From: Schaalia meyeri
Lineage (GTDB): Bacteria > Actinomycetota > Actinomycetes > Actinomycetales > Actinomycetaceae
Assembly: GCF_900105015.1 (NCBI RefSeq)
Contig: NZ_FNLK01000015.1
Span: forward strand, 90,001-122,000
DNA: 32,000 nt
Direction of reading: 5' to 3'
Part shown: positions 255 through 23,184 of the stretch, in pieces
Numbering within the stretch: position 1 is the first letter of the stretch
Layout: every line of letters begins with the position of its first letter
The notes under the pieces: model-generated
What the model was told of the DNA's origin: nothing
Databases searched by the model: none
What the model saw: the letters and a program-made list of their open reading frames with translations, nothing else
Program-made: the position numbers and the translations under genes

Positions 255-1187
255 CTACGCCCTGTTGAGTTCACCGAAGGGGATGTGGACGCTGGGCGTT
301 GAATCCGAGGCCGTGTCCACGTGGCGGCGCTGGTCGTCAAAGAAGATATGCGGCTGCAGGACACCCAGGATGGGTCCCTTGTTGATTCCTCCCAGGAAGA
401 ACGCGTCGTTGACGCGCAGCCCCCACCCACGGATCGAGTTAATCGCGCGCTCGTGGGCGGGCGCACTGCGCGCCGTCACGACGGCGACGCGGACCCTGCG
501 TTCGTAGCCTTCCGGATCGGCGTCGTGCTTGGCGTCCTCAATCCGTTGGATGTGGTTGATCTTTTCCAGGAAGGCCGCCAGCGGGCCCCTGGGGAGGGGC
601 ACGTCGGCCAGGGCGCTTTCGTTCTCCTGGTACGCCTCCAACGTTCCCTCCTGATAGATCCTCTCGGAGGAGTCGTCGGCCAGAACGCCGTCGAAGTCGA
701 AGGCGATGCGCAGGTCGGTGCCCCCGTCGTCCGCCACCGCGCGCCCCACGACGCGGCCAGCCGCGAAACCCAGCCCGATCGCCTCGCGCACGTCAGTCTC
801 GTTGGCCGACAGGAACAGGGACATGCGCAGCGGTTCCATGAAACGGTAGGGAGAGCGGCCCTGCATGAAGATCGCGCGCGTGATGTCCAACCCGTGGTGC
901 TTAACCGAGCGCATGACGCGCAGCCCCGTCTCCGGGTCGTTGCGCGACAGGATGACCACCTCGACCAGGCGCTCGTCCTCGGAGAGGTCGTTGAGGGTCA
1001 GGAGGCGGCGGATGAAGGGGAAGGCCACCCCCGGTGCCAGTGCGTTGTCAAGGTGGTCGCGCTGGTACTCGCGGTACTTCTGCTCGCCATCCTGGCGGAA
1101 CACCGCGTCCGAAGACCTCAAGTCGAAGAGCGCGCTGGAGGCGACCCCGATGACGAGGGCACGCTCCAGATCCAGTTTCCCGGGCAT
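255..1187 (-). CDS. 5'-nucleotidase family protein (PF06189-like)
   Basis: The ORF track gives 255..1232. I prefer the internal ATG at 1187 (MPGKLDLERALVIGVASSALFDL) because GGAAGGAAGGA lies just upstream on the minus strand. Motifs VVILSRNDPETGLRV, LFLSANETDV, RIAFDFDGVLADD and HIFFDDQ match my recollection of the bacterial cytosolic 5'-nucleotidase family. Confidence 0.7.
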   Translation of the reverse strand: MPGKLDLERALVIGVASSALFDLRSSDAVFRQDGEQKYREYQRDHLDNALAPGVAFPFIRRLLTLNDLSEDERLVEVVILSRNDPETGLRVMRSVKHHGLDITRAIFMQGRSPYRFMEPLRMSLFLSANETDVREAIGLGFAAGRVVGRAVADDGGTDLRIAFDFDGVLADDSSERIYQEGTLEAYQENESALADVPLPRGPLAAFLEKINHIQRIEDAKHDADPEGYERRVRVAVVTARSAPAHERAINSIRGWGLRVNDAFFLGGINKGPILGVLQPHIFFDDQRRHVDTASDSTPSVHIPFGELNRA

Positions 1188-1395
1188 TGCGTCCTTCCTT
1201 CCGCTCACTTTGACCCACTTCCCTGTGGGCAAGGGTATAGGCGCCCATGCTCACCTGCGTCCCAGGATCCGCGCCGCCCGGTGTCCCTGATCCGAGGCCG
1301 CCGACGCGCACGTTAACCCGTAAGGACGCGCATGCGCGCAAGCTCGACGCGCCCTCATCGCACTGTCGCGGCGGCCACAGATTGTCCAGCCGGAT

Positions 1396-2085
1396 TTAAG
1401 ACCGACCAGGGGTTGTGTCAGCTCGGTGCCATGCGACTGCGATCTGCACCCGGTCACGCAGGCCCGTTTTAGTCAGGATCCTGCTCACATACCTGCGCAC
1501 GCTCGTGACCTCGATGACGAGTTTCCCTGCGATCTCAGCATTCGATAGCCCATCAGCAACCAAAGCGGCCACTTGGCGTTCCCTGGGCGTCAGTGCCCCA
1601 AACACCTCACTCGATCCCGTTCCACCGACTCCGCCAAAGGTCGGAGATGCCGCCGCGCGACGGATCAGTTCGCCTGTTAGGCGAGGAGTGAGCACGGCAT
1701 CACCGCGGGCAACCGCATGGACCGCATCGCACAGCTGTCGGGCGGTGGCGTCCTTGAGGAGAAAACCCGACGCTCCCGCAGCCAGGGCGCCGAACGCGTA
1801 ATCATCCTGGTCGTACGTCGTCAAGACAAGCACCCGGATCTGCGGGTAGCGTGCAGTCACCAGGCGCGTCGCGTCTATCCCGTCCAGCCTCGGCATACGC
1901 ACATCCATCAAAACCACATCAGGCATTTCCTGGCCGCGCAGCGAGAGACTATCGAGCTTCTCCAAGCCCTCGCATCCGTCCTGAGCCTCAGCCACCAATT
2001 CCGTATCGGGGTCGTGCCTGAGCATGAGGGAGACCCCGATCCGAGAGAGGCGCCGGTCATCAACAACCATCACGCGGATCATCAC
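1396..2085 (-). CDS. Two-component response regulator, NarL/LuxR family
   Basis: N-terminal receiver domain (MIRVMVVDD ... DVVLMDVRMPRLDG ... LVLTTYD). C-terminal LuxR HTH (LTPRERQVAALVADGLSNAEIAGKLVIEVTSVRRYVSRILTKTG). The GTG at 2085 or the ATG at 2082 overlaps the kinase stop at 2082-2084. Confidence 0.9.
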   Translation of the reverse strand: MMIRVMVVDDRRLSRIGVSLMLRHDPDTELVAEAQDGCEGLEKLDSLSLRGQEMPDVVLMDVRMPRLDGIDATRLVTARYPQIRVLVLTTYDQDDYAFGALAAGASGFLLKDATARQLCDAVHAVARGDAVLTPRLTGELIRRAAASPTFGGVGGTGSSEVFGALTPRERQVAALVADGLSNAEIAGKLVIEVTSVRRYVSRILTKTGLRDRVQIAVAWHRADTTPGRS

Positions 2086-3344
2086 GCGGCTCCTATCCCC
2101 GATCGCGCACTAGATCCAGCCTCATCATGTTCCCCCTCGCCCCTCGACCACAAGGGGATGCGCGCGTGCAGCGCCCAGCCCGCCCCGGACCACCCCGCCT
2201 GGCAGACGCCGCCCGCCTCCACGACCCGGGAACGGACCATCGACAGCCCCGAGTGGGGCGACGCGACGATAGGAAGCGGCGGGCCCCCGTCGGCACCGTC
2301 GCCGGGTGCTTCGTGCTGTCCGTCGTCGCGGACGGACACCTCCACCCAGCCGGTGTCCTTGTGGTCCCACGACACCGTGATCATTGAGGCTCCCCGCGCA
2401 TGCCTGAGCGCGTTCGTGATTCCCTCACGCGCGACGGCGAAGGCGAGGGCCGCCTGGCGCGTATCCGACGAACGACGACCAGTCTCATGGAAGGTCACCG
2501 ACATGCCTGTCCGTCGGGCATTCGCGATGACGGAATGGATGTCATCCCACGTGTGCCTGCCCGGATCCACGGGGGTATGCGCTCCCGGGCTCAGCGCACG
2601 CACCGCATCTCTCGTCTGCGCCAAGCATTCTCGGGCGACAGTATTGATACCCGCCAGCGCCTCGTCGACCATTGCATCGCCTGTTTCCCCGGTCAGACCC
2701 TCGGACAGGGCGATAATCGTGGTCAGTCCATGGCCGACCGAGTCGTGGAGTTCGGCCGCCACCCGGGACTGAGCAACCGCCAGGTTTCGCTCTCGCTCCA
2801 TTGCCGCAGTCCGTAGATTCGCTTCCCTGCCACGACGCATGGTGTCGTGGGCGCTTTCGCGCGCACGGAGCACCATGCCACAGCAGCAGACCATCGCGAA
2901 CGTGGTCAACGAAACGAATGCCTCCGTCCCTTTTCCCTCGACAACCCCCGCGGCAGCGCCGACCGCCGTCGCCGCCGAGCAGACCGCACCGACCGCTGCG
3001 GCTACACGCGCAGACGTGTGGCGCCCCAGTGAGTAGAGAGCGATGATCGCAGGAAGGACCAGGAAAGCACCAACACCGAACGCGGTGGATACCACGTACA
3101 GGCCGACAGCTCCCACCGCCACCACGACGGGGTGCGCACGGCGAACAGCGACGCCGACAACTCCAGCTCCCGACGCAACCGCAATCAACATAGCAGAGAT
3201 GGGGGCCAGGCCACCGGGAATGACGGGGCCGCCAGGGAACCCTGGGACCATGAACGAAGCAAAGAGGGCGACTTCGTAGGACACACAGACCAGGATCGGA
3301 ACCCAGCTCACGTAGCCTCTGGTCTTTCCTGGGTCACCACCCAT
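2082..3344 (-). CDS. Sensor histidine kinase, HisKA_3 (DesK/LiaS-like), intramembrane-sensing type
   Basis: About 170 aa of N-terminal hydrophobic helices with no sizeable extracytoplasmic loop. H-box AAELHDSVGHGLT. HATPase region with REGITNALRHA and GSGLSMVRSRV-like G-boxes. The start shares one base (3344) with the permease stop. Confidence 0.85.
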   Translation of the reverse strand: MGGDPGKTRGYVSWVPILVCVSYEVALFASFMVPGFPGGPVIPGGLAPISAMLIAVASGAGVVGVAVRRAHPVVVAVGAVGLYVVSTAFGVGAFLVLPAIIALYSLGRHTSARVAAAVGAVCSAATAVGAAAGVVEGKGTEAFVSLTTFAMVCCCGMVLRARESAHDTMRRGREANLRTAAMERERNLAVAQSRVAAELHDSVGHGLTTIIALSEGLTGETGDAMVDEALAGINTVARECLAQTRDAVRALSPGAHTPVDPGRHTWDDIHSVIANARRTGMSVTFHETGRRSSDTRQAALAFAVAREGITNALRHARGASMITVSWDHKDTGWVEVSVRDDGQHEAPGDGADGGPPLPIVASPHSGLSMVRSRVVEAGGVCQAGWSGAGWALHARIPLWSRGEGEHDEAGSSARSGIGAA

Positions 3345-4780
3345 CAGGTCCCCTTTCGCGCAACAGCCTGCTTACCGCGAGTATCCTCACGCAGTGCCGG
3401 CCGCGGACCAATCCACCCGGCGAGTCGCCACCGAAGGATAGACACCACCGACAGGAAGGAAGCCAGGGCGAAAGCTAGACACAAATCCACCGGCGGACAA
3501 AACGCCAGGACTGCGAACAGACGTAGGGAGAGTAACAAACCAATGCCCGCTGTAGCCAGGGCGAGGGCGAGGGCAAGCAGCCCGGTCGCTGCCGCCAGGA
3601 GGGCAGCCTGCCAGACCACCATTCGCCATGCTTGAGCACGTGACACGCCCAGGGTACGAAGGATTGTAATCTCCGGCCCTTGGTCACCGGCACTGAGAGC
3701 CGTCACCGCTGTGGCGGTCGCCAAAGCGAAGACAGACACCAAGATGACGAGTACAACGGTATCGGTGTAGTTGAAGGCCTCCTGGACTCCCTGGGCTCGC
3801 ATGATGCGCTCAAAAGTACGAATCACACACAGGAGGAGCGACCCGCCCCCGACGGCAGTGACAAGGGGAGTCACGGTGATGGAGCTACGCCCTGCTCGCG
3901 CGCACAGCGCTTTGCCTGCGAGAACCCCCATCGGCGCCCCCATGCGAGCAGGAATCATCCCCACACAAGCGATGGCCGCTTTCACTCCCCTCGCGCCCCA
4001 CAGGGCAACCGCCACCAACAGGAGGACACCCGGCCACAGCATCAGTGAGCTGAGCGCCCCGCCTCGACCCGTTTCATCCGGCAACGAGATACCCGCCCCA
4101 ACGATCGCCAGGACTACTGCGAGTAAGGCAACCAGTGTTGCGGCCATCGGATGGCCCGAAACGCGGGCTGCTCCTGCATGCGAGGAACGGAGCGCCTCTA
4201 TAGGCCGCATGCGAACCGCCCTCACCACGGGTCCCAGCGAACCCAGCATGCAGGTGAGCCACGACAAGGCCAGCGAGGCTATCAAAGCCTTGGGAGAAGG
4301 TGCGAAGGCCGGATTGAAATCTCCGGTTCCACCCGGAAAGCTCTGAGCGGCCAGCTGGTTAAACCAGGGGATAAGGACGAACGACGTAGGCACCGAGAGA
4401 AAGGAACCAACGAGCGCGCCGATGCCACCTGCCGCAGCCGTCATAGTGAAAGCGGTAGCCCCTACCTGGGCGGGGGTTGCTCCCAGGAGTCGCCAGCGGC
4501 TAAAGTCCGGGGCACAGCGTACGACTGTGGACGCGCCGATGATGGTGAGAGAAAAAGCGGCGATGAGGGCAACGCAACAGTAGATGGACACCGAAACGAT
4601 ATGGAACTCCTGAGCTCGCAGGCCCGCGACCTGCACTGCGGCAAGGAAGCGTGACGAGCGCGTCCAGGCGAATTGGTTCGCGCACACACCCACGAGTGCG
4701 GTCGTGAGCGACATGACGACAATGAGAGGAACCCAGGCACCCCAGTCATTGGTCAAGATCCTGCGTGCGTATCTGAGCAT
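3344..4780 (-). CDS. ABC transporter permease, FtsX-like
   Basis: 478-aa polytopic membrane protein. The N-terminus MLRYARRILTNDWGAWVPLIV is typical of FtsX/MacB-type permeases. It sits directly downstream of the ATPase gene and overlaps it by 35 nt. Confidence 0.8.
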   Translation of the reverse strand: MLRYARRILTNDWGAWVPLIVVMSLTTALVGVCANQFAWTRSSRFLAAVQVAGLRAQEFHIVSVSIYCCVALIAAFSLTIIGASTVVRCAPDFSRWRLLGATPAQVGATAFTMTAAAGGIGALVGSFLSVPTSFVLIPWFNQLAAQSFPGGTGDFNPAFAPSPKALIASLALSWLTCMLGSLGPVVRAVRMRPIEALRSSHAGAARVSGHPMAATLVALLAVVLAIVGAGISLPDETGRGGALSSLMLWPGVLLLVAVALWGARGVKAAIACVGMIPARMGAPMGVLAGKALCARAGRSSITVTPLVTAVGGGSLLLCVIRTFERIMRAQGVQEAFNYTDTVVLVILVSVFALATATAVTALSAGDQGPEITILRTLGVSRAQAWRMVVWQAALLAAATGLLALALALATAGIGLLLSLRLFAVLAFCPPVDLCLAFALASFLSVVSILRWRLAGWIGPRPALREDTRGKQAVARKGT

Positions 4781-5513: not shown

Positions 5514-5802
5514 CGTGGATCCCTTCTCGGTTGTATCCCAGCAACCCGTGGCTCCCGGGTTTTCTTTCTCCTGTCTCCCATACAATCGCAGTGGCCGATC
5601 CCAGCGCTAGTGTTCGGGCACTATCGTCATCTCGAGCGGACAATGGTCGGCTCGTTGTTCCCGCGCGGTGAAGGCACAGCAAAGAGTGTTCACGCCCAAC
5701 CACCTCGTAGCGCACGTGTTGGCGACAGGGCAACAGGGTGCCCGTACAGGACATGCCATCAACCTACGGGTCTGCGGCAACCGGGTCCCGCCGCGCGAGG
5801 TT

Positions 5803-7092
5803 CTAGCCCTCGCCGTCGACAGGCGACGCGGCGGGCGTGGGAGCGTCGAGGTCGCGGATGCTAGGAACGGCGTACATGGCCGCTCCGAGGATGCAGAAGA
5901 AGAGGCCCGCGGCGGTGAAGAGGGCGGGCAGTCCCGTCCAATCGGCGATGGCACCGCCCAGGGCGACGCCGAGGGGCATCGCCAGCCCAAGCATCAGTTG
6001 GAAGAACCCCACTGCGCGCCCGACCTTGTCCTCTCCGACGTGCCTTTGGATGAGGGTCATCAGGGGCGGGTGGAACCACGCCAGGAACACGCAGGCAAAC
6101 CCCATGAGCGCCACGAACGCCCAGAATCCACTCTTGGGAAGCAGGCCGGTCGCCGCGATGGGGAATCCGACGATGACGATCGTGCAGCTCATGAGCAGCG
6201 CCAACCGCTGGCCCCCTCCCCACGCCATCATGATGACCACGCCGACCAGCATGCAGGTGCCCGTGATCGCCTCGGCGATGGACACCATGCCCCCGTCGGC
6301 GCCGAAGTGCTGCTGCGCCATGAGCGGGTACACCGCCTGAATGGCGGCGAAAACCATCATCCCGGCGGTGAGGGCGACGATCAGGATGACCAGGCCCGAG
6401 TGGACGTTCAGCGCCCTCCACCCCTGGCGGATCTGCCCCATGATGGTCGGGGGCATCTCGGCCTCAACCGAGGGGATCCTGGCCAGTGCCAGGCCGCCCA
6501 CCGCCAGGAGCGCCCCTGCGAACTCCAGGCCCAGGGTGTAGGGCAGCCCGAAGGCCGTGTAGAGGGCGATGCCGATCGCCGGAGAACCGATGTTGGCGAT
6601 CGATCCGATGGCCTGGTCGAGGGCATTCACGCGCATGAGGTGTTTCTCGGGGACCAGCATCGGCATGGCCGCGCTCATCGCGGGGAAGTGGAAGGCCTGG
6701 AAGCAGCTGCGCAGCGCCGCGAAGAGGCATATGAGGGCGAAGGTGCCGTGCCCGAACCACGCCAGGGCCCCCAACGCCAGCGACATCACGCCCGCACCCA
6801 GGTCGGAGACGATCATGACGGTGCGGCGGTTGTAGCGGTCCGCGGCCAGGCCACCCAGGGGGGCCAGCAGCCCGAGGGGCAGCTGGGAGAGGGCCATGAC
6901 GAGGGCGAGCTTCAGGGCCGAACCCTCGGTGGTGGTAACGTGCCAGATGATCGCCCACCCGGACGCCCCGCTGGTGACGATGGAGAACGCCTGGCCGCTC
7001 CAGATCATGGCGACCACTCGCCACCAGTTCAAAGCCAGCTGGCGGCCGGAGGCGCTTACCTGCGCGGGAGCAGAGGAGGTATCTGGGAGCAT
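5803..7092 (-). CDS. MFS transporter (EntS/macrolide-efflux-like, MFS_3)
   Basis: About 12 predicted TM helices. MFS motif GGLAADRYNRR after TM2. The start is set at the in-frame ATG 7092 (MLPDTSS...) because a TTGACT-17-TACCGT promoter ends 7 nt upstream, which suggests a leaderless mRNA. The track ORF runs to 7287 through GC-rich, non-membrane sequence. Confidence 0.75.
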   Translation of the reverse strand: MLPDTSSAPAQVSASGRQLALNWWRVVAMIWSGQAFSIVTSGASGWAIIWHVTTTEGSALKLALVMALSQLPLGLLAPLGGLAADRYNRRTVMIVSDLGAGVMSLALGALAWFGHGTFALICLFAALRSCFQAFHFPAMSAAMPMLVPEKHLMRVNALDQAIGSIANIGSPAIGIALYTAFGLPYTLGLEFAGALLAVGGLALARIPSVEAEMPPTIMGQIRQGWRALNVHSGLVILIVALTAGMMVFAAIQAVYPLMAQQHFGADGGMVSIAEAITGTCMLVGVVIMMAWGGGQRLALLMSCTIVIVGFPIAATGLLPKSGFWAFVALMGFACVFLAWFHPPLMTLIQRHVGEDKVGRAVGFFQLMLGLAMPLGVALGGAIADWTGLPALFTAAGLFFCILGAAMYAVPSIRDLDAPTPAASPVDGEG

Positions 7093-7099
7093 CCATGCA

Positions 7100-7128
7100 A
7101 CGGTAATGTCACGCTTCTTGCCAGTCAA
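7100..7128 (-). promoter_or_regulatory. Putative promoter of the MFS gene (TTGACT - 17 nt - TACCGT), possibly leaderless
   Basis: Read on the minus strand: TTGACT (7128-7123), a 17-nt spacer, then TACCGT (7105-7100, fits actinobacterial TAnnnT). The ATG at 7092 begins 8 nt after the -10 hexamer. The -35 lies in one copy of a 12-bp direct repeat. Confidence 0.35.
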
Positions 7129-7294
7129 TAGATCTTGCCAGTCAACAGCCACGAAGTCCCCGGCGACCCTCGTCGAACACCGCCCGGCACCGCGCCCTGA
7201 CGCTTCGCTCGCGGCGCCCGGCGTCTCTGCGGTTGAACCGAGCCCTTCCCAGGGGCGCGGATAACACACCACGTCATAAAGCGCCAAAAACCCT

Positions 7295-9604: not shown

Positions 9605-10401
9605 TTAGCGTTCAGGGCGCGACCTTCACCTATCCCGGCGCGCCCGCCCCGATCCTGCGTGACATGAGCTTTACTGTCCCGGAGCGTTCCCTGCTGGCCG
9701 TCCTGGGGCCCAACGGGGCGGGGAAGACGACGCTGCTGCGCACCATGATCGGCCTGCAAAAGTGGGACAGCGGGCGCACCTTGATCGACGGCACCGACAT
9801 TTCCGACATGTCGACGCGCGCGCTGGGCCGGGTGCTGTCCTACGTTCCGCAGGCACGCAACGCGTCCAACGTGGCGCTCACCGGCCTGGAGATGGTCATA
9901 GTCGGGCGCGCACCGCACATGCGCACCTTGGCCCAGCCGGGGGCTCGCGAGGAGGCGATGGCCCGGGAGGTTCTCGACGAGATCGGCGCCTCGCACCTGG
10001 CGGAGATGCCATGCGCGACCATGTCGGGCGGGCAGTTCCAGATGATCCTCATTGCCCGCGCGCTCGTCGCGAACCCGCGGGTCCTCGTGCTGGATGAACC
10101 GGAGACCGGACTGGATTTCCGCAACCAACTGATCGTCCTGGGGTTGCTCGAACGCCTCGTGAAGGATCGGGGGCTGGCCGTCATCATGAACACGCACTAC
10201 CCGGCTCACGCCCTGAGGGTTGCGGACCAGGTTGCGCTCTTTTCCTCCACCCACCAGGCCGTGGTCGGTCCCGCGTCCTCCGTGATGAACGCTGCCACCC
10301 TGGCGGACGTGTTCGGGGTGGACGTGGCGATCGGCTGCGTGCCCTTCGAGGGCGAGGACGTGAGGGCCATCGTGCCGGTGCGGCTGGCCGGCCCGCAATA
10401 G
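9601..10401 (+). CDS. Iron-chelate ABC transporter ATP-binding protein (FecE/FepC-like)
   Basis: Walker A GPNGAGKTTLL, signature MSGGQFQM, Walker B VLVLDEPETGLD, H-loop NTHYP. The start ATG 9601 lies inside the longer track ORF 9367..10401. Confidence 0.9.
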   Translation: MISVQGATFTYPGAPAPILRDMSFTVPERSLLAVLGPNGAGKTTLLRTMIGLQKWDSGRTLIDGTDISDMSTRALGRVLSYVPQARNASNVALTGLEMVIVGRAPHMRTLAQPGAREEAMAREVLDEIGASHLAEMPCATMSGGQFQMILIARALVANPRVLVLDEPETGLDFRNQLIVLGLLERLVKDRGLAVIMNTHYPAHALRVADQVALFSSTHQAVVGPASSVMNAATLADVFGVDVAIGCVPFEGEDVRAIVPVRLAGPQ

Positions 10402-10588
10402 CCCGGCTTGCGCCGCGACGCGCCCCGCGCACCCGCGCGAAACGATGCGATGCTTTGGTGTGCGGTCCCGTTTTCCCGGCGATGGCAGTCTTTTGCCAAC
10501 CCTTTACGCGACAACTGTGCGGTGCCTTACAAGGACTTGTGTGGGTATGGACCGCGCGGCCACGTCGCCGTAGAATAGGTACTGCACC

Positions 10589-10620
10589 AACGGGGGCGAC
10601 GCAGGTCGGCCCCGTTTTTT
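10589..10620 (+). terminator. Rho-independent terminator-like hairpin
   Basis: AACGGGGGCGAC (10589-10600), loop GCAG, GTCGGCCCCGTT (10605-10616). That is a 12-bp stem with one mismatch, running into a T6 tract (10615-10620). A TGGACC-17-TAGAAT promoter-like element (10548-10576) ends only 12 nt upstream. Confidence 0.55.
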
Positions 10621-10725
10621 GATGCCGCCGCCCTCCCGGGCGGCGCGGGCCGACCGGCCCACACAACACGCTGGCGTGCGGGGCGCGCTTCGCGCCTCCG
10701 CGCGAAGACAAACTCAAGGAGAACC

Positions 10726-10944
10726 ATGGACCACATCGTCAAGGCTGAGACCGCGCCCACCATCAGCCAGGCCACCGCCTCGGCTTCCGTTTTCGTCGCC
10801 CTCATCGTCGTCCTGGCCGGACTCGGCATGGCCGCCGCCCTGCAGGTCGCCTCCGTGTCATCGATGGTCCTGGCGGTCGTCATCGCCCTGACCGCCCTGA
10901 TCGTCTCCCCCGCGATCATCTCGATCGCTCGCACGCGCGCCTGA
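10726..10944 (+). CDS. Small hydrophobic protein (72 aa, two predicted TM helices), unknown function
   Basis: AAGGAG (10716-10721) lies 4 nt before ATG 10726. The sequence MDHIVKAETAPTISQATASASVFVALIVVLAGLGMAAALQVASVSSMVLAVVIALTALIVSPAIISIARTRA has two hydrophobic spans. Its own terminator follows. Confidence 0.55.
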   Translation: MDHIVKAETAPTISQATASASVFVALIVVLAGLGMAAALQVASVSSMVLAVVIALTALIVSPAIISIARTRA

Positions 10945-10982: not shown

Positions 10983-11017
10983 AGCGTGACACCGCCGAGG
11001 TGTCGCGCTTTTTCTTT
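10983..11017 (+). terminator. Rho-independent terminator after the 72-aa ORF
   Basis: 11-bp stem, AGCGTGACACC (10983-10993) with GGTGTCGCGCT (10999-11009), containing one G-U pair. The loop is GCCGA. It is followed by TTTTTCTTTG. Confidence 0.6.
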
Positions 11018-11081
11018 GCCTGCCTCCCCCCGCCTCGTCCATGTGAGCGCCGAAAAACCGGGCATTGGAGCCCCCGGAGAC

Positions 11082-11111
11082 TTGCGAATCGTGTTCACCC
11101 CCTATTAGAGT
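11082..11111 (+). promoter_or_regulatory. Putative promoter of the effector module (TTGCGA - 18 nt - TAGAGT)
   Basis: TTGCGA at 11082-11087 and TAGAGT at 11106-11111 (TAnnnT type). It lies about 35 nt upstream of the helper gene, in the only non-coding gap after the preceding terminator. Confidence 0.3.
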
Positions 11112-11144
11112 CTATTTGTCAACCACTGCATCGAGGAGGATGTG

Positions 11145-11441
11145 ATGAACGGTTTTCGCATGGACACAGACAGGTTGGAAGAGGCCTCGGGGGAAATGGG
11201 TCGGCTATCCGACGGGATGAGCGAACTGGGGCTGGACAAGTGTGAAGAGTCCTTCGACTGTGGAGATAGCGCCGTGAGAGACGCGCTGATGTATTTTGTC
11301 TCCATGTACAACAGGCGCGGTCAGGCCACACGGGAGTGGCTCAACAAGACCGCCAGCGGGCTGCACGCTACCGCGTATGCGACGCAGGAAACCGACGACG
11401 AAGTGGCGGCGGTCTTCGAGGCGATTCGAGCGAAGCTGTAG
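11145..11441 (+). CDS. Small helical ESX/T7SS-associated helper (EspC/DUF2580-like, WXG100 superfamily) carrying a YxxxE motif
   Basis: AGGAGG (11134-11139) lies 5 nt before ATG 11145. The product is 98 aa and reads as all-helical. The C-terminal LHATAYATQETDDEVAAVFEAI contains Y78-A-T-Q-E82 (TAT at 11376-11378). The gene ends 13 nt before the WXG-protease gene. Confidence 0.6.
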   Translation: MNGFRMDTDRLEEASGEMGRLSDGMSELGLDKCEESFDCGDSAVRDALMYFVSMYNRRGQATREWLNKTASGLHATAYATQETDDEVAAVFEAIRAKL

Positions 11442-11454
11442 AAACGAGGGAATC

Positions 11455-12753
11455 ATGGAAGCGAGATTTTCGCAGCGCTTTCCGGCTGTGACGGGGGATC
11501 TGGGCTCGATCTGGTCGTGTCAGAACGAAATCAGGAATCGCTCGCGCCAGATCGGGGAGCTGTACACCGGCGTCAACGCTGTCATCAGCCGGTGCATCGA
11601 CTGGGAGGGACAGGCGAAAGACGCCTTCATCAACAGCGCGAGCGTCGAGAAACGCGAGATTGGCATCTGGGAGGACGGCACCCTCCAGGCGGCGAACGCG
11701 CTGAAGAGCTACTACTTCACTCTGGAGTGGGTCATTGGCTCGGTCAACGGGATCCGTGCCCGGGCGGACGAGCTGTGGGAGCAATACCAGGCGATGACCC
11801 CCGCCGACAGGGCGATGCAGGAGGCTTCCATTAAGGAGGAACTTTCCTACCTGCAAAAGAGCTACGACGACGCGAAGAACGAGCTGTCGAACCAGGCGCT
11901 GAACACCGCGGCCTCCCTCAGGGAGGCCCTGTATTTCACGCCGGAGGATATCCACACGGTCGAAGACGAGCACATCGACATTGGGGACACACGTTCCCTA
12001 ACAGACACAGAGATCAACAGCATCCTCGCCCACCTCAGCAATCCTTCATCCACCCTGTTCAGTATCAAGCAAGGGCAAATTGGAGACTGCCACCTGCTCG
12101 CCTCGCTCAACGCTTATAACCAGACCGAGGCGGGACGCAGGTATCTGGCGAGCCTCATTACCCCGCACTACGGCGCCGACGGCAAGGTGGACGGGTTCTA
12201 CGTGAACTTCCCCGGGTTCGGCAGGAACCGCAGGCGCGTTTTTGTCCAGGACGTACTGGAGCATGGGGATACCGCCGGGAGGAGCCGCAACGCTGACCTC
12301 GGCTCCATCTTCGAGAAGGCATTCGTCCAATCGCACATGGGCGGGACACGGGGGAAGTTCCCCACGTGGGGAGCCTCCGGGAGCCTGTCGGCCTTGACCA
12401 TGACGGACATCTCCGGCAAGCTCACCGCACCGATTCCACTCACGAACTCCACCAACGCGGCCGCCATGTTTGCCGCAATAGCCGCGGTCAACACGGGCAA
12501 GCCGGTCGTCGCCGAGTCCGGCCTCGTTACCGGGCCCGCAGACGTCATCGTCGGCGGGGAGCCGACGAGGATCCAGGTCTCCTCCAGCCACGTCTACACC
12601 GTCGTCGGAGCGGACGGCAACGGCGTGACCCTCACGAACCCGTGGGGGCACAACGATGCCCCCAACGGTAGTCGAACGGAGGCAACCTTCACGATGAGCT
12701 GGAGGGACTTCTTCGCCAACTTCGGCGACGTCACCGTGGGGCGGGTCCCGTGA
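11455..12753 (+). CDS. Putative T7SS-secreted polymorphic toxin: WXG100-like N-terminal domain fused to a calpain-like (peptidase C2-type) cysteine protease domain
   Basis: GAGGGA RBS before ATG 11455; the product is 432 aa. N-terminal helical region of about 190 aa with IDW50EG52QAKDAF (TGG at 11602-11604). C-terminal domain motifs: KQGQIGDC212HLLASL (TGC at 12088-12090), IFEKAFVQSH, SSH379VYTVVG (CAC at 12589-12591) and LTN395PWG (AAC at 12637-12639). These match calpain QGxLGDCWLLAA, EKAYAK, GHAYS and RNPWG. The upstream part of the track ORF (11296-11454) overlaps the helper gene out of frame and is not used. Confidence 0.8.
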   Translation: MEARFSQRFPAVTGDLGSIWSCQNEIRNRSRQIGELYTGVNAVISRCIDWEGQAKDAFINSASVEKREIGIWEDGTLQAANALKSYYFTLEWVIGSVNGIRARADELWEQYQAMTPADRAMQEASIKEELSYLQKSYDDAKNELSNQALNTAASLREALYFTPEDIHTVEDEHIDIGDTRSLTDTEINSILAHLSNPSSTLFSIKQGQIGDCHLLASLNAYNQTEAGRRYLASLITPHYGADGKVDGFYVNFPGFGRNRRRVFVQDVLEHGDTAGRSRNADLGSIFEKAFVQSHMGGTRGKFPTWGASGSLSALTMTDISGKLTAPIPLTNSTNAAAMFAAIAAVNTGKPVVAESGLVTGPADVIVGGEPTRIQVSSSHVYTVVGADGNGVTLTNPWGHNDAPNGSRTEATFTMSWRDFFANFGDVTVGRVP

Positions 12754-13232
12754 GCGTTAAGCCCCCGCGCAAGCGCACCGTGTTCACCATCCTCGCCCTG
12801 GTCTTCGTCATCGCCTGGACCTACGCCCACATCGCCTACGCCTGGCCCTGGAAACGATTCCAAACAGGCACCCGCATCACCTGCCAAGGCCAATACAGCG
12901 TCGGCTCTATACCAAACACTCCGGCTCCCCTACTGGGATTTCTTTCCGGCGGCTCCCCCGTACTCTTCGGCGCCAGGGGCAGGATCAACATGGGGGTCGA
13001 GACAGCCAGCATCGGCCTATCCGCAGAGATTGACGGCAAGATAGACACCCTCGCCTACGTGCCGGAAGTGAGCCTGGGGGAGTCCGCCACCGTCGATGGG
13101 GTGGGCACCTTCACCCTCAAACGGGCCTACTCGGGCACTGTGTGGTTCACCCCCAACCCCGGGGGAGCAACCTTCTGCTTCGAACCCGACCCCACCTTCA
13201 CCATACGAGAAGGAAAACAACGAGTGAAATGA
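12750..13232 (+). CDS. Membrane-anchored small protein, candidate immunity/inhibitor protein, copy 1
   Basis: GTG 12750 overlaps the toxin stop (GTGA). The product is 160 aa. It has a KPPRKR positive patch, then the TM helix TVFTILALVFVIAWTYAHIAYAW, then a roughly 120-aa beta-looking domain with two Cys residues. It is a paralogue of the next gene. Confidence 0.7.
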   Translation: MSVKPPRKRTVFTILALVFVIAWTYAHIAYAWPWKRFQTGTRITCQGQYSVGSIPNTPAPLLGFLSGGSPVLFGARGRINMGVETASIGLSAEIDGKIDTLAYVPEVSLGESATVDGVGTFTLKRAYSGTVWFTPNPGGATFCFEPDPTFTIREGKQRVK

Positions 13233-13276
13233 GGACAAGCACTCTCACCACCCTCACCGCAGGGCGGGTCCCGTGA
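13229..13276 (+). other. 15-codon relic ORF (MRTSTLTTLTAGRVP) retaining the toxin 3' end, bridging the two paralogues
   Basis: ATG 13229 overlaps the stop of copy 1 (ATGA). Its stop at 13274-13276 overlaps the GTG start of copy 2 (GTGA). Its last residues, GRVP plus stop, and about 15 nt of DNA are identical to the toxin gene end (..VTVGRVP stop). Confidence 0.35.
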
Positions 13277-13746
13277 GCGTTAAGCCCCCGCGCAAGCGCA
13301 CCGTGTTCACCATCCTCGCCCTGGTCTTCGTCATCGCCTGGACCTACGCCCACATCGCCTACGCCTGGCCCTGGAAACGATTCCAAACAGGCACCCGCAT
13401 CACCTGCCAAGGCCAATACCAGGTAGGAGCGGAACCTCACCAGAACGCGACGTACCTAGGAACACTGACTGACGACTCATTGGTGAGGTTCGACGCCTGG
13501 GGAGAAATCAACATGGGGGTCGAGACCGCAGGATTTTCCCTATTCACGATTGAAGGCAATCACGTGAACGACATCGCCTACGTGCCGGAAGTGAGCCTGG
13601 GGGAGTCCGCCACCGTCGAGGGAGTGGGCACCTTCACCCTCAAACGGGCCTACTCGGGCACTGTGTGGTTCACCCCCAACCCCGGGGGAGCAACCTTCTG
13701 CTTCGAACCCGACCCCACCTTCACCATGTTCGAAGAAGCCAAATGA
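13273..13746 (+). CDS. Membrane-anchored small protein, candidate immunity/inhibitor protein, copy 2 (variant central region)
   Basis: 157 aa. The first 49 aa are identical to copy 1. The central 52 aa are 21/52 identical. The next 50 aa are identical except for one D/E change. It has the same TM anchor and the same two Cys residues. Confidence 0.7.
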   Translation: MSVKPPRKRTVFTILALVFVIAWTYAHIAYAWPWKRFQTGTRITCQGQYQVGAEPHQNATYLGTLTDDSLVRFDAWGEINMGVETAGFSLFTIEGNHVNDIAYVPEVSLGESATVEGVGTFTLKRAYSGTVWFTPNPGGATFCFEPDPTFTMFEEAK

Positions 13747-20671: not shown

Positions 20672-20914
20672 GTCTCTTCCTTATTTTAGATAGGGGTCCG
20701 TGCGGTAATTCGTGCGCATCGGGCACCGTCCAGTTTAGTGGGTACCATTTTGTGCCACGGCCTCAGCTGTTGAAATAATGCTTTTTCCCATCCCCTTTGC
20801 CGCGGGAGAATGCCAAATATTCAACCATCGAAACATCGTGACACGGGCGTCACCAACCCTCGTTCGTCGGCCGTTGGGACACCGACGCCCCTCGTGCCCT
20901 TAAATGGGAACGTT

Positions 20915-22237
20915 GTGACTGTTCATATGCTTTCAGCGGACCACCGCCACGCCCCCCTCGACGACATCGCCCGGCTCTCCGGCGCGACCGACCTCGGCCC
21001 CACGCTGGCACGCGCGTGCCCTCAGGCGCGCGGCGTCATGGTCCTGCGCACCTGCAACCGCGTCACCGTCTACATCGACGCACCCGCCTCGGCCAACCCC
21101 CGCGCGCTCCGCGACACCGTCGAGCGCGAGCTGGCCCGGGCCTCGGCGATGGCGAGGAAGGACGTGAAGCTGCGCCACCTGTGGGGGCGCGACGCCCTCA
21201 CCGACCTGTTCGCGACGGCCGCGGGCCTGGAGTCCATGGTCGTCGGGGAACGCGAGATCGCGGGGCAGATGCGCCGCGCAGCGCACTGCGCATGGGAGGA
21301 CGGGACCCTCAGCTGCGACCTGGGTCGCGCCGTGGAGCGCGCGTCCGCGACCTCGCGGCGCATCGCCACCGAAACCAGTTTGGCGGGAGCGGGGCGCTCG
21401 GTCGTCGCCGTCGGACTGAACCTGGCGGCCGCCCACCTGCCCGCGTGGGAGGACACCAGGGTCCTCATCGTCGGGACGGGCGCGTACGCGGGCGCCTCTG
21501 TGAGCACGCTGGCCGCCCTGGGCGCCCTGGACGTGTGCGTCTACTCCACGTCCAGCCGCGCGGAAGAGTTCGCACGGGGACGAGGCATCGGCTGGGTCGA
21601 TGCGCACGCCCTCCCGGACGCCCTTCGCCGCGCGGACCTGGTGCTCACCTGCCGGGGACTGGGGTCCGCCGTCCTGACCCGTTCCCTCGCGCAGCGCGCC
21701 GGCCGCACGGTTGTTTTGGACCTGGCGCTCACCCGCGACGCGGACGCCTCCATCGCGGATCTGCCGGGGATCACCCTCATCGACCTGCCTACGATCCAGG
21801 GGTCGGTGCCCGACGCGCAGGTCGACGCGCTCGATCGCGCCCATGCGATCATCTCCGAGGAGGTGGACTCCTTCGAGCGCGGCCTCGGCGCCCGCTCAAT
21901 GGACCCCGTCGTGCGCCACCTGCGCGCCCGCGTCTTCGACATCGTCGACGCGGAGATCGCTCTTCTGGGCCAGGATCCCATCTCGCCCGAGAAAGCGGCG
22001 CGGGCCCTGCGCCACCTGGCCGCCCGACTCGTCCACAACCCCACCGTCATGGCCCGCAAGGCCGGCGAAGAGGGTCAACAGGAGCGCTACCTGGAGGCGC
22101 TGAGCGTGGTCCTCGGCATCGACGAGGCCGTGTCCGTGTGCCCCGCCCACGCCCGCAACCGGAGCGCTGTTCACGGCCAGCAGGCACCTCACCATTGCGA
22201 GGCGCGCACCAGGCCGCTTCGTACACTGGGGGCATGA
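20915..22237 (+). CDS. hemA: Glutamyl-tRNA reductase
   Basis: TCNRV active-site Cys motif, VVGEREIAGQM, and the NADPH-binding VLIVGTGAYAG. I chose GTG 20915 (GGGAA 5 nt upstream), which puts the conserved His at residue 10 as in other HemA proteins. The ATG 20810 extension is AT-rich and its SD abuts the ATG. Confidence 0.88.
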   Translation: MTVHMLSADHRHAPLDDIARLSGATDLGPTLARACPQARGVMVLRTCNRVTVYIDAPASANPRALRDTVERELARASAMARKDVKLRHLWGRDALTDLFATAAGLESMVVGEREIAGQMRRAAHCAWEDGTLSCDLGRAVERASATSRRIATETSLAGAGRSVVAVGLNLAAAHLPAWEDTRVLIVGTGAYAGASVSTLAALGALDVCVYSTSSRAEEFARGRGIGWVDAHALPDALRRADLVLTCRGLGSAVLTRSLAQRAGRTVVLDLALTRDADASIADLPGITLIDLPTIQGSVPDAQVDALDRAHAIISEEVDSFERGLGARSMDPVVRHLRARVFDIVDAEIALLGQDPISPEKAARALRHLAARLVHNPTVMARKAGEEGQQERYLEALSVVLGIDEAVSVCPAHARNRSAVHGQQAPHHCEARTRPLRTLGA

Positions 22238-23184
22238 GCACCCGGAAGAACGAACCACGCGCCCTCGCCCTGGGCGTCGCCGTCTACGTGATCTGGGGTT
22301 TCTTCCCCCTGTACTTTTTCCGGCTATCCCCCGCCGGGGCCGTCGAGGTGATCGTCCACCGGGCTGTGTGGGGCCTGGTTTTTTGCCTGGCGGCGCTCGC
22401 ACTCACGGGCTCCCTGGGGAAGATCCGCGCGCTCGTCGCGGACAGGGGGGCGCTGTGGCGGCTCACGGTCGCGGGGGCTCTGGTCGTCGTCAACTGGTCC
22501 GTGTACGTGTTCGCCATCCTCACGGGCCACACGACGGACGCTGCGATCGGGTACTTCGTTAACCCCCTCGTCACCGTGGCCCTGGGCCTCATCGTGCTGC
22601 GTGAGCGCGTCACCCCCGTCCACAAGCTCGCCCTTAGCCTGGGTTGCCTCGCCGTTGTCATCCTTATCGTCGGACAGCGCTCCATCCCGATCGTATCCCT
22701 GACGCTCGCCCTCACGTTCGGCCTGTATTCCCTGGTGAAAAAAGACGTGGCCGCTCGCGTTGACCCGTTGGCCGGCATGGCCATCGAAACAGCCGCGGTC
22801 TCGCCCATCCTGCTGGGCTACTACGCGTACCTGGTGGCCACTTCCTCCACGTCCTTCCACGCGCTGGCGTCCGGCCAGGGAACCCGTCCGTGGGGCGTGC
22901 ACCTGGCCCTGCTGGTGGGCGCGGGGGCGCTGACCATGGTTCCGCTGATCATGTTCGCCTCCGCCGCCAGGGGCCTCACCCTGGGCACCATGGGTTTCCT
23001 GCAGTACCTGGGCCCCACCCTGCAGCTCTTCGTCGCACTCTTCATCTTCGGGGAAAACGTTCCCACGATCCGGTGGGTCGCGATGGGGGTCGTGTGGCTG
23101 GCCCTGGGGTGCCTGAGCGGCGACTGGGCGCTCACCTCCCTTCGGGCAAGGCGCCTGGCGCGCTCGGCGGCGCCTGGCCGGTAG
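22234..23184 (+). CDS. rarD: EamA/RarD family transporter
   Basis: MSTRKNEPRALALGVAVYVIWGFFPLYFF (RarD-type WG..P.Y motif) with about 10 TM helices. ATG 22234 overlaps the hemA stop (ATGA). It forms the C-terminal 316 aa of the 722-aa track ORF. Confidence 0.85.
   Translation: MSTRKNEPRALALGVAVYVIWGFFPLYFFRLSPAGAVEVIVHRAVWGLVFCLAALALTGSLGKIRALVADRGALWRLTVAGALVVVNWSVYVFAILTGHTTDAAIGYFVNPLVTVALGLIVLRERVTPVHKLALSLGCLAVVILIVGQRSIPIVSLTLALTFGLYSLVKKDVAARVDPLAGMAIETAAVSPILLGYYAYLVATSSTSFHALASGQGTRPWGVHLALLVGAGALTMVPLIMFASAARGLTLGTMGFLQYLGPTLQLFVALFIFGENVPTIRWVAMGVVWLALGCLSGDWALTSLRARRLARSAAPGR

Follow-up and report, generated by a model that had tools for sequence, protein, structure and literature searches.

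Our analysis of a 32-kb window of the genome of the oral bacterium Schaalia meyeri (positions 90,001 to 122,000 of contig NZ_FNLK01000015.1; positions below are those of the window unless another locus is named) points to a compact four-gene operon carrying a calpain-like protease. We hold with moderate confidence that this operon is a satellite of the Schaalia Esx (type VIIa) secretion system and encodes an effector, an exported protease, together with a targeting partner and extracytoplasmic immunity proteins. The four genes lie on the same, forward strand, as do the terminator, possible promoter, mini-ORF and 72-aa ORF described below and the ORFs at 321-1316, 5668-7131 and 21016-23184, and encode a helper (11145-11441, 98 aa), the protease (11455-12753, 432 aa), the gene 3 protein (12750-13232, 160 aa) and the gene 4 protein (13273-13746, 157 aa). 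The helper start is preceded at 5 nt by a GAGGAGG ribosome-binding site, the helper and protease genes are 13 nt apart, the protease gene stop overlaps the gene 3 start as GTGA, and an ATGA/GTGA relay connects gene 3 to gene 4. This packing of co-directional genes is present just as a first-pass annotation of the same DNA described it, and the W50-E-G52 motif of the protease, the Y78-x-x-x-E82 motif of the helper and the protease domain lie where that annotation placed them. The core of its proposal, a satellite module of the Esx or type VII secretion system (T7SS) that combines a calpain-like protease bearing a WXG domain with a helical partner and with cognate proteins anchored in the membrane, is supported by Pfam matches of the family to T7SS_signal, WXG100 and PPE, by weak matches of the helper and the protease N-terminal domain to EsxA/EsxB structures, by the linkage of one homologue to eccD-eccC in Actinomyces ruminicola and by a recent study of Esx secretion in this genus (PMC13622651).

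The 432-aa protein is, as far as sequence analysis reaches, an active calpain-type cysteine protease. Its calpain-like (Peptidase_C2) core spans residues 198-432 (12046-12753), and the Pfam family Peptidase_C2 (PF00648) matches residues 198-400 with 29.0 bits against a curated cutoff of 23.8 (E = 6.9e-7). The same family is matched by 20 of 20 close relatives and by 15 of 25 distant ones. When a family profile was compared with the PDB, the catalytic cores of calpain-9, calpain-1 and other calpains were recovered, with calpain-9 as the best match (E = 1.8e-10), and the alignment paired QGxIGDC(H/Y)LLA with the calpain Cys motif GDCWLLA, SHVYTV with GHAYSV, and NPWG with RNPWG. The catalytic set consists of the oxyanion-hole Gln Q206 (12070-12072), C212 (12088-12090), H379 (12589-12591) and N395 (12637-12639), all of them invariant columns in an alignment of 15 sequences with identity down to 22%. 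Single-sequence searches of the PDB and NCBIfam gave no match, and a Pfam scan of the protease gave no accessory-domain match. Calcium-binding sites are generally missing from bacterial calpain homologues (Rawlings 2015). Among close relatives, variability peaks at residues 321-345 (12415-12489), within the catalytic domain. Neither the protease nor the helper has a signal peptide or a transmembrane segment.

The N-terminal part of the protease (residues 1-165, 11455-11949) is a helical WXG-type domain with a putative role in Esx targeting. W50 and G52 of its W50-x-G52 motif (11602-11610) are invariant in 25 relatives, down to approximately 25% identity, and the motif falls at the turn between helices 34-49 and 53-66 in a low-confidence AlphaFold2 (AF2) model (20-sequence alignment, mean predicted local distance difference test [pLDDT] score of 60) that we used for secondary structure only. 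Pfam T7SS_signal (PF21725) is matched by 13 of the 20 close relatives and 12 of the 25 distant ones (best E = 3.9e-7); the distant set also includes matches to WXG100 (8 relatives, best E = 3.1e-5), WXG100_2 (3 relatives) and PPE (1 relative). More distant actinobacterial calpain proteins with the same domain pairing occur in Propionibacteriaceae, Bifidobacteriaceae, Actinotalea and other Actinomyces, and one Propionibacteriaceae relative (locus L043) reaches 36.5 bits for T7SS_signal against a cutoff of 27, with Peptidase_C2 on the same protein. Among the families put forward in the first-pass annotation, Peptidase_C2 was found above its cutoff and WXG100 in the 8 distant relatives, and LXG (PF04740) had no match in the approximately 55 family members scanned (E ≤ 0.01 to 0.1). 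The family profile also gave weak PDB matches to 4lws (E = 0.0099), which we take to be a T. curvata Esx protein, to Staphylococcus aureus EsxA (E = 0.046) and to PE25. A Foldseek search of the PDB with the protease model returned nothing at E ≤ 0.001; its top entries were PPE41 chains at E ~0.2, which we did not count as evidence. A profile of residues 1-170 retrieved just 28 cluster representatives out of 1.84 billion, and the full-length ones measured approximately 430 to 450 aa and carried a calpain core. The domain is thus essentially found only with the calpain core and appears dedicated to this enzyme. The grammar of polymorphic toxins that the first-pass annotation saw in the locus does not hold in the strict sense, given that the domain is all but confined to calpain-type proteins approximately 440 aa long.

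The helper is an acidic, helical protein whose gene immediately precedes that of the protease in most mapped loci. DUF6317 is matched by 8 of 11 helper homologues (best E = 1.9e-6). A profile built from 14 diverse helpers found S. aureus EsxA as its best match in the PDB, with a weak (E = 0.023) alignment that runs end to end, and further WXG100-type structures stood lower in the list. We regard the helper as a candidate WXG100-like targeting or co-secretion partner on the basis of these profile matches. An hhalign comparison of the helper with the protease N-terminal domain detected no relationship (probability 0.9%), and our literature search found no paper naming DUF6317 or PF21725. Y78-x-x-x-E82 of the helper had been proposed as an export motif that, together with the WXG of the protease, would form a bipartite export signal. 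Close relatives have H or Q at position 78, distant ones have R, K or N, and the bipartite-signal argument fails because the YxxxE of the helper is not conserved; we therefore rejected it as a conserved feature. The proven Schaalia substrates AesA and AesB carry FXG and also lack YxxxD/E (PMC13622651), and the missing motif is therefore not decisive.

Genes 3 and 4 form a 523-nt tandem direct repeat, a recent duplication with 99% identity at both unit ends and a divergent middle. The two proteins share 100% identity over residues 1-49, 40% over residues 50-101 and 98% over residues 102-151, and gene 4 is a tandem paralogue of gene 3 that differs in its central cassette. The repeat unit reaches 19 nt into the 3' end of the protease gene and thereby accounts for a 15-codon mini-open reading frame (mini-ORF; 13229-13276; MRTSTLTTLTAGRVP and a stop) that bridges gene 3 and gene 4. 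It begins with an ATG that shares bases with the stop codon of gene 3 (ATGA) and ends with a stop that does the same with the GTG of gene 4 (GTGA). The mini-ORF terminates, like the protease, in GRVP and a stop, and its sequence identifies it as a relic of the protease gene 3' end that travelled with the duplicated unit and preserves the ATGA/GTGA coupling context.

Both the gene 3 and gene 4 proteins begin with a positively charged N-terminus and a single hydrophobic helix (Kyte-Doolittle hydropathy of 2.09) ending in AYA/W, which could be a signal-peptidase site. Both continue with a beta-rich domain (AF2 secondary structure only, from a gene 3 model with a 52-sequence alignment and a pLDDT of 54) and a conserved Cys45/Cys143 pair, and the 52-homologue alignment shows a hypervariable stretch at residues 50-101 of the gene 3 protein. 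The charged N-terminus, the hydrophobic helix, the beta-rich domain and the Cys pair together argue for an extracytoplasmic location. The description of these genes as two tandem membrane-anchored partners was borne out, with hydropathy supporting the N-terminal signal-anchor helix and repeat analysis the tandem duplication. All members of the partner family are signal-anchored proteins or lipoproteins. In distant modules, the partners are either lipobox-Cys lipoproteins or transmembrane-anchored proteins, and they share only the Cys pair and a C-terminal motif of approximately 50 residues, LxLGES..(I/V)xGVGTFTL...FCFxPxPxF. Partner arrays combine several classes of central cassette, and one class can be found at differing array positions in different species. 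The covariation between the variable patch of the protease and the partner cassette was r ~0.58, compared to 0.40 for the N-terminal domain, a difference that is confounded by phylogeny and by the arrays. Surface-tethered immunity against extracellularly acting T7SS toxins has precedents in the TelC/TipC and TslA/TilA pairs. The hypervariable, multicopy and shuffled partners match what would be expected of surface-tethered immunity proteins under diversifying selection, and we infer this function from sequence patterns.

Residues 21-35 of the gene 3 and gene 4 proteins (12810-12854 and 13333-13377) read (F)VIxWTYAHIAYAWPWK, which is near-invariant across homologues of approximately 50% identity. 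This conservation exceeds the needs of a plain signal anchor and may mark a recognition or cleavage element. A chagasin- or staphostatin-type inhibitor identity was considered for genes 3 and 4 and found no support, the sole match being a weak, sub-threshold CshA_repeat. Foldseek comparison of the gene 3 model with the PDB returned nothing at E ≤ 0.001.

The physical link between this protease family and the type VII machinery comes from one species. Among 16 more distant actinobacterial loci examined, one cluster-linked case was found, in A. ruminicola (L046). The EccC of this locus measures 1357 aa and contains three FtsK/SpoIIIE domains (E = 2.7e-84), and its gene has an EccD-like gene and a gene with an FHA domain as neighbours. 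A protease homologue lies 1.5 kb downstream of eccC; it aligns over its full length to the family profile (hhalign probability 100%, E = 6.9e-46), retains the motif as WQG and is adjoined by two paralogous transmembrane-anchored proteins with a weak match to the partner motif (E = 5e-5). At 889-3551 of the same locus, the FHA-domain protein that adjoins the EccD-like and EccC genes has transmembrane segments and a Pro-rich linker; its linkage resembles the EsrG (FHA)-Esx linkage reported in PMC13622651. Between eccC and the calpain-like gene lies a gene for a 408-aa protein whose disordered N-terminus is rich in Arg, Gly and Ser. An FtsK-like gene near a protease paralogue in another locus (L020) was considered as an EccC and set aside; given its single FtsK domain and its neighbours thyA, folA and fumC, it is probably a true FtsK. 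According to a September 2026 preprint, the Esx system of S. odontolytica F0309 is functional and restrains Saccharibacteria, S. meyeri W712 induces Esx proteins upon infection, and distal candidate Esx substrates adjoin WXG100-like hairpin genes (PMC13622651).

Several observations weigh against an Esx effector. The T7SS_signal match of the S. meyeri protease itself is below the cutoff (20.5 versus 27 bits, E = 4.8e-4). No YxxxD/E motif is conserved among the helper homologues or kept across the protease family, in which Y87xxxE91 is invariant in the close clade and lost in distant relatives. The AF2 models are too poor to show a helical bundle or any complex. No T7SS core gene (EccC-like) lies within 10 kb in 39 loci (L006-L044), which contain all full-length tblastn matches, and the absence of such a gene from the window, noted in the first-pass annotation, was confirmed across all 32 kb. 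The only Esx secretome of the genus, a comparison of wild-type S. odontolytica with an eccC deletion, detected EsxA, EsxB, AesA and AesB alone (PMC13622651). In addition, partner genes are missing from one paralogue group (L018-L021 and L028), and immunity is therefore not obligatory. Finally, syntenic vertical inheritance and an N-terminal domain that occurs with no other toxin domain are unlike classical polymorphic toxins.

The sub-threshold T7SS_signal score, the Foldseek result, the scarcity of T7SS genes near almost all loci and the lack of any report of Esx-dependent secretion of such a protein would also suit a cytoplasmic regulatory enzyme unrelated to the T7SS. In that case, the WXG-like domain would be a coiled-coil or oligomerization module, and its similarity to secretion proteins would be of the kind that helical proteins generically share. 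We consider this explanation quite improbable, given that W-x-G is invariant at a predicted helix-helix turn across sequences of approximately 25% identity, that several T7SS families are matched independently, one of them above its cutoff, and that one homologue is embedded in an eccD-eccC cluster. The obligate neighbours of the protease are moreover extracytoplasmic, and a cytoplasmic enzyme could therefore not meet them.

Under the effector reading, the catalytic competence seen in the sequence, the conservation of the module and its gene-neighbourhood patterns are the basis on which export, target, immunity and toxicity are proposed as follows. The WXG helical domain of the protease would pair in the cytoplasm with the hairpin-like DUF6317 helper, and EccC-dependent secretion would recognize the pair and carry it out of the cell; a Sec signal is missing from the protease, yet the partners that are cognate to it face outward. 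Once outside, the protease would cut surface or cell-wall-zone proteins of neighbouring cells, with competing Actinomycetaceae and possibly Saccharibacteria epibionts as targets. The membrane-tethered gene 3 and gene 4 proteins would bind and block the protease at the producer surface. Specificity would lie in the hypervariable middle of the partners, and tandem arrays would extend the protection to variant proteases of other strains. We also considered a bolder version, to which we give a low probability: an Esx-delivered anti-epibiont or anti-competitor protease that cuts, from the outside, surface proteins of Saccharibacteria or rival Actinomycetaceae, for example attachment structures, with the partners as a new family of membrane-tethered cysteine-protease inhibitors whose hypervariable loops form an arrayed library against the variants of rivals.

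Hidden Markov models built from the helper, protease and partner alignments were mapped onto 79 genome loci; the module as a whole recurs in Actinomycetaceae, and the helper-protease-partner order is kept in Schaalia, Pauljensenia, Actinomyces, Peptidiphaga, Buchananella and Actinobaculum. Partner genes number 0 to 5; where present, as in most loci, they follow the protease gene immediately, and stop and start codons frequently overlap. In Actinomyces and Schaalia contigs with a 53%-identical protease, the order is an iron-type ATP-binding cassette (ABC) transporter, a 72-aa gene, the helper, the protease, one or two 160-aa genes and hemL. Synteny despite this divergence indicates that the module is old and vertically inherited, with no recent insertion. 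Three divergent modules per genome occur in Peptidiphaga gingivicola (L025, L027 and L033) and Buchananella hordeovulneris (L036, L039 and L044). The module is present in many human oral species, including the genetically tractable S. odontolytica group.

With its place between an ABC transporter and hemL kept from one species to the next, the locus has the look of a stable housekeeping element, and we considered that the protease could be exported, by Esx or otherwise, to act on its own envelope, where it would process, shed or mature surface proteins, with the partners as substrates, docking sites or regulators. The fixed, never polymorphic architecture and the paralogue group entirely without partners are in line with this, as is the remodelling of the Schaalia cell surface on epibiont contact (PMC13622651). 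The extreme conservation of the transmembrane/juxtamembrane motif WTYAHIAYAWPWK of the partners likewise hints at more than anchoring. We nevertheless judge a self-directed protease unlikely, since the hypervariable cassette, its shuffling and the occurrence of the partners in arrays of 1 to 5 point to an arms race and not to a fixed substrate. Several divergent modules can coexist in one genome, such as the three of P. gingivicola, and the protease too has a variable patch.

Some individual loci deserve comment. One contig (L026) carries two modules approximately 4 kb apart on opposite strands, and the protease genes of L038, L040 and L044 are apparently split by frameshifts. Two loci with organism titles "Sanguibacter keddieii 250_SKED" (L007) and "Xylanimonas cellulosilytica 352_XCEL" (L017) contain modules that are arranged as in Schaalia and show 62 to 63% identity to the protease of S. 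meyeri, and these organism labels are probably wrong.

The four products are exact matches of S. meyeri proteins at NCBI, where QQC43686 is named "protein HldE" (helper), QQC43685 "C2 family cysteine protease", and QQC43684 and QQC43683 "DNA-binding protein"; none of the names refers to secretion. Pfam and NCBIfam give no backing to the name "protein HldE" of the helper or to the name "DNA-binding protein" of the partners (12750-13746), and both are probably propagated misannotations. The recent duplication behind gene 4, which is reached via a mini-ORF relic, might suggest an annotation or ORF-calling artefact, or decayed, functionless remnants. This is effectively refuted by conservation: there are four exact NCBI proteins and many metagenomic homologues, dozens of species have kept the reading frames and the catalytic residues intact, and the GC content at third codon positions (GC3) is 0.76 to 0.84, typical of host genes.

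The 5' boundary of the operon is marked by an intrinsic-terminator-like stem-loop and T-tract (10983-11019; 11-bp stem with 7 GC pairs and a TTTTTCTTT tail), in which the hairpin proper (10983-11009) is followed by the T-tract and closes an upstream 72-aa membrane-protein gene. A possible promoter, TTGCGA ... TAGAGT (11082-11112), was read from the sequence; it is weak, has no statistical support, and was not picked up by a consensus promoter scan, so that the promoter-like element proposed in the first-pass annotation was not corroborated. The overall GC content of the module is 0.62, compared to 0.67 to 0.72 in the flanks, with a host-like GC3. The upstream 72-aa ORF (10726-10944) apparently encodes a small protein with two hydrophobic helices in its own transcription unit; the same gene precedes the module in L001-L005 and has no Pfam match. 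In L001 (7993-8202) and L004 (8690-8899), a cold-shock (CSD) gene lies between the ABC ATPase gene and the 72-aa gene; the corresponding spacer of the window (10401-10726) is shorter and holds no cold-shock ORF. The remaining window is ordinary chromosome, with a two-component system, ABC transporters, a hemL-hemE haem operon, dnaB, ssb and a class A penicillin-binding protein, and an Rfam scan of it found no RNA family. The ORFs at 321-1316 (331 aa) and 5668-7131 (487 aa) have no Pfam match, and for that at 21016-23184 (722 aa), which an alternative ORF of 475 aa (20810-22237) overlaps, an EamA domain in the C-terminal half is the sole match; these three gene calls are uncertain in such high-GC sequence.

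Esx secretion in oral Actinomycetaceae has only recently been tied to a function, anti-Saccharibacteria defence, and one effector pair is known. The S. meyeri module supplies a candidate effector whose enzymatic activity can be read out, along with its likely targeting partner and the likely immunity proteins. If the effector reading is correct, a protease class would be added to the T7SS toxin repertoire, and T7SSa effectors beyond mycobacteria would share the logic of helper and immunity genes with the LXG systems of Firmicutes. The anti-epibiont or anti-competitor weapon, if true, would be the first protease-class T7SS effector and its partners a new inhibitor fold. The public names "HldE" and "DNA-binding protein" would also need correction.

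Compared to eukaryotic calpains (family C2) and their bacterial homologues (Rawlings 2015), the S. meyeri protease shares the Gln/Cys/His/Asn core and the GDC(W/H/Y)LL, HxY(S/T)V and NPWG motifs; unlike the eukaryotic enzymes, it has no C2-like or penta-EF-hand domains, and its location is probably extracellular rather than cytoplasmic. The novelty claimed for a calpain-type T7SS effector in the first-pass annotation was overstated. WXG100-calpain fusions from Herpetosiphon aurantiacus and Segniliparus rugosus were catalogued in 2015 and judged by a reviewer of that paper to be probable T7SS toxins (Rawlings 2015), and WXG-led papain-fold toxins (Tox-PL1) had been described earlier (Zhang et al. 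2012); for both groups, export by the T7SS was a prediction. Given these precedents, the architecture belongs to a predicted, uncharacterized class and is no new kind. The S. meyeri module shares with both an N-terminal WXG-type domain and a clan-CA cysteine peptidase core, but it represents a separate, mostly Actinomycetaceae subfamily whose N-terminal domain scores best against T7SS_signal and whose architecture is fixed, not polymorphic. It also adds a dedicated DUF6317 helper and arrays of surface-tethered partners, neither of which had been described. Our literature search found no paper that ties calpain-like proteases to the T7SS experimentally, and the text of PMC13622651 makes no mention of a calpain-like protein or a secreted protease effector.

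The nearest comparison within the genus is AesA-AesB of S. odontolytica, which limits Saccharibacteria and uses the secretion system proposed here for the module (PMC13622651). The likeness extends to an N-terminal helical bundle with a non-canonical signal (FXG, no YxxxD/E) and to the pairing of distal candidates with WXG100-like hairpin genes, whereas the AesB C-terminus is disordered and Gly-rich with no enzyme, and no immunity genes are described for AesAB (PMC13622651). With mycobacterial EsxA/EsxB, PE/PPE and EspB, the S. meyeri module shares a predicted helix-turn-helix with W-x-G at the turn, an adjacent gene for a small helical candidate partner and weak profile matches to EsxA/EsxB and PE25. 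It differs from these ESX substrates in that YxxxD/E is not conserved, a 235-residue enzyme is attached and the locus lies far from an esx cluster.

In Firmicutes, T7SSb modules combine an LXG toxin with Lap targeting factors and immunity proteins, with TelC-TipC and TslA-TilA as the closest cases; the toxins are reportedly treated by Whitney in 2017 and Klein in 2022. The S. meyeri operon has the same order of small helical partner gene(s), a putative effector with a helical targeting N-terminus and a C-terminal enzyme, and candidate immunity gene(s), whose products likewise would face outward against a toxin acting outside the membrane and which can be multicopy. The protease carries WXG rather than LXG, with no Pfam LXG match, and its host uses the actinobacterial T7SSa. 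There is a single helper here compared to two or three Lap proteins there, and the warhead is a protease; we know of no experimentally characterized T7SS protease toxin. What is new here is the Actinomycetaceae subfamily with its DUF6317 helper and its surface-tethered, hypervariable partner arrays, the physical link to eccC in one species and the recognition that the public annotations of these genes are misleading.

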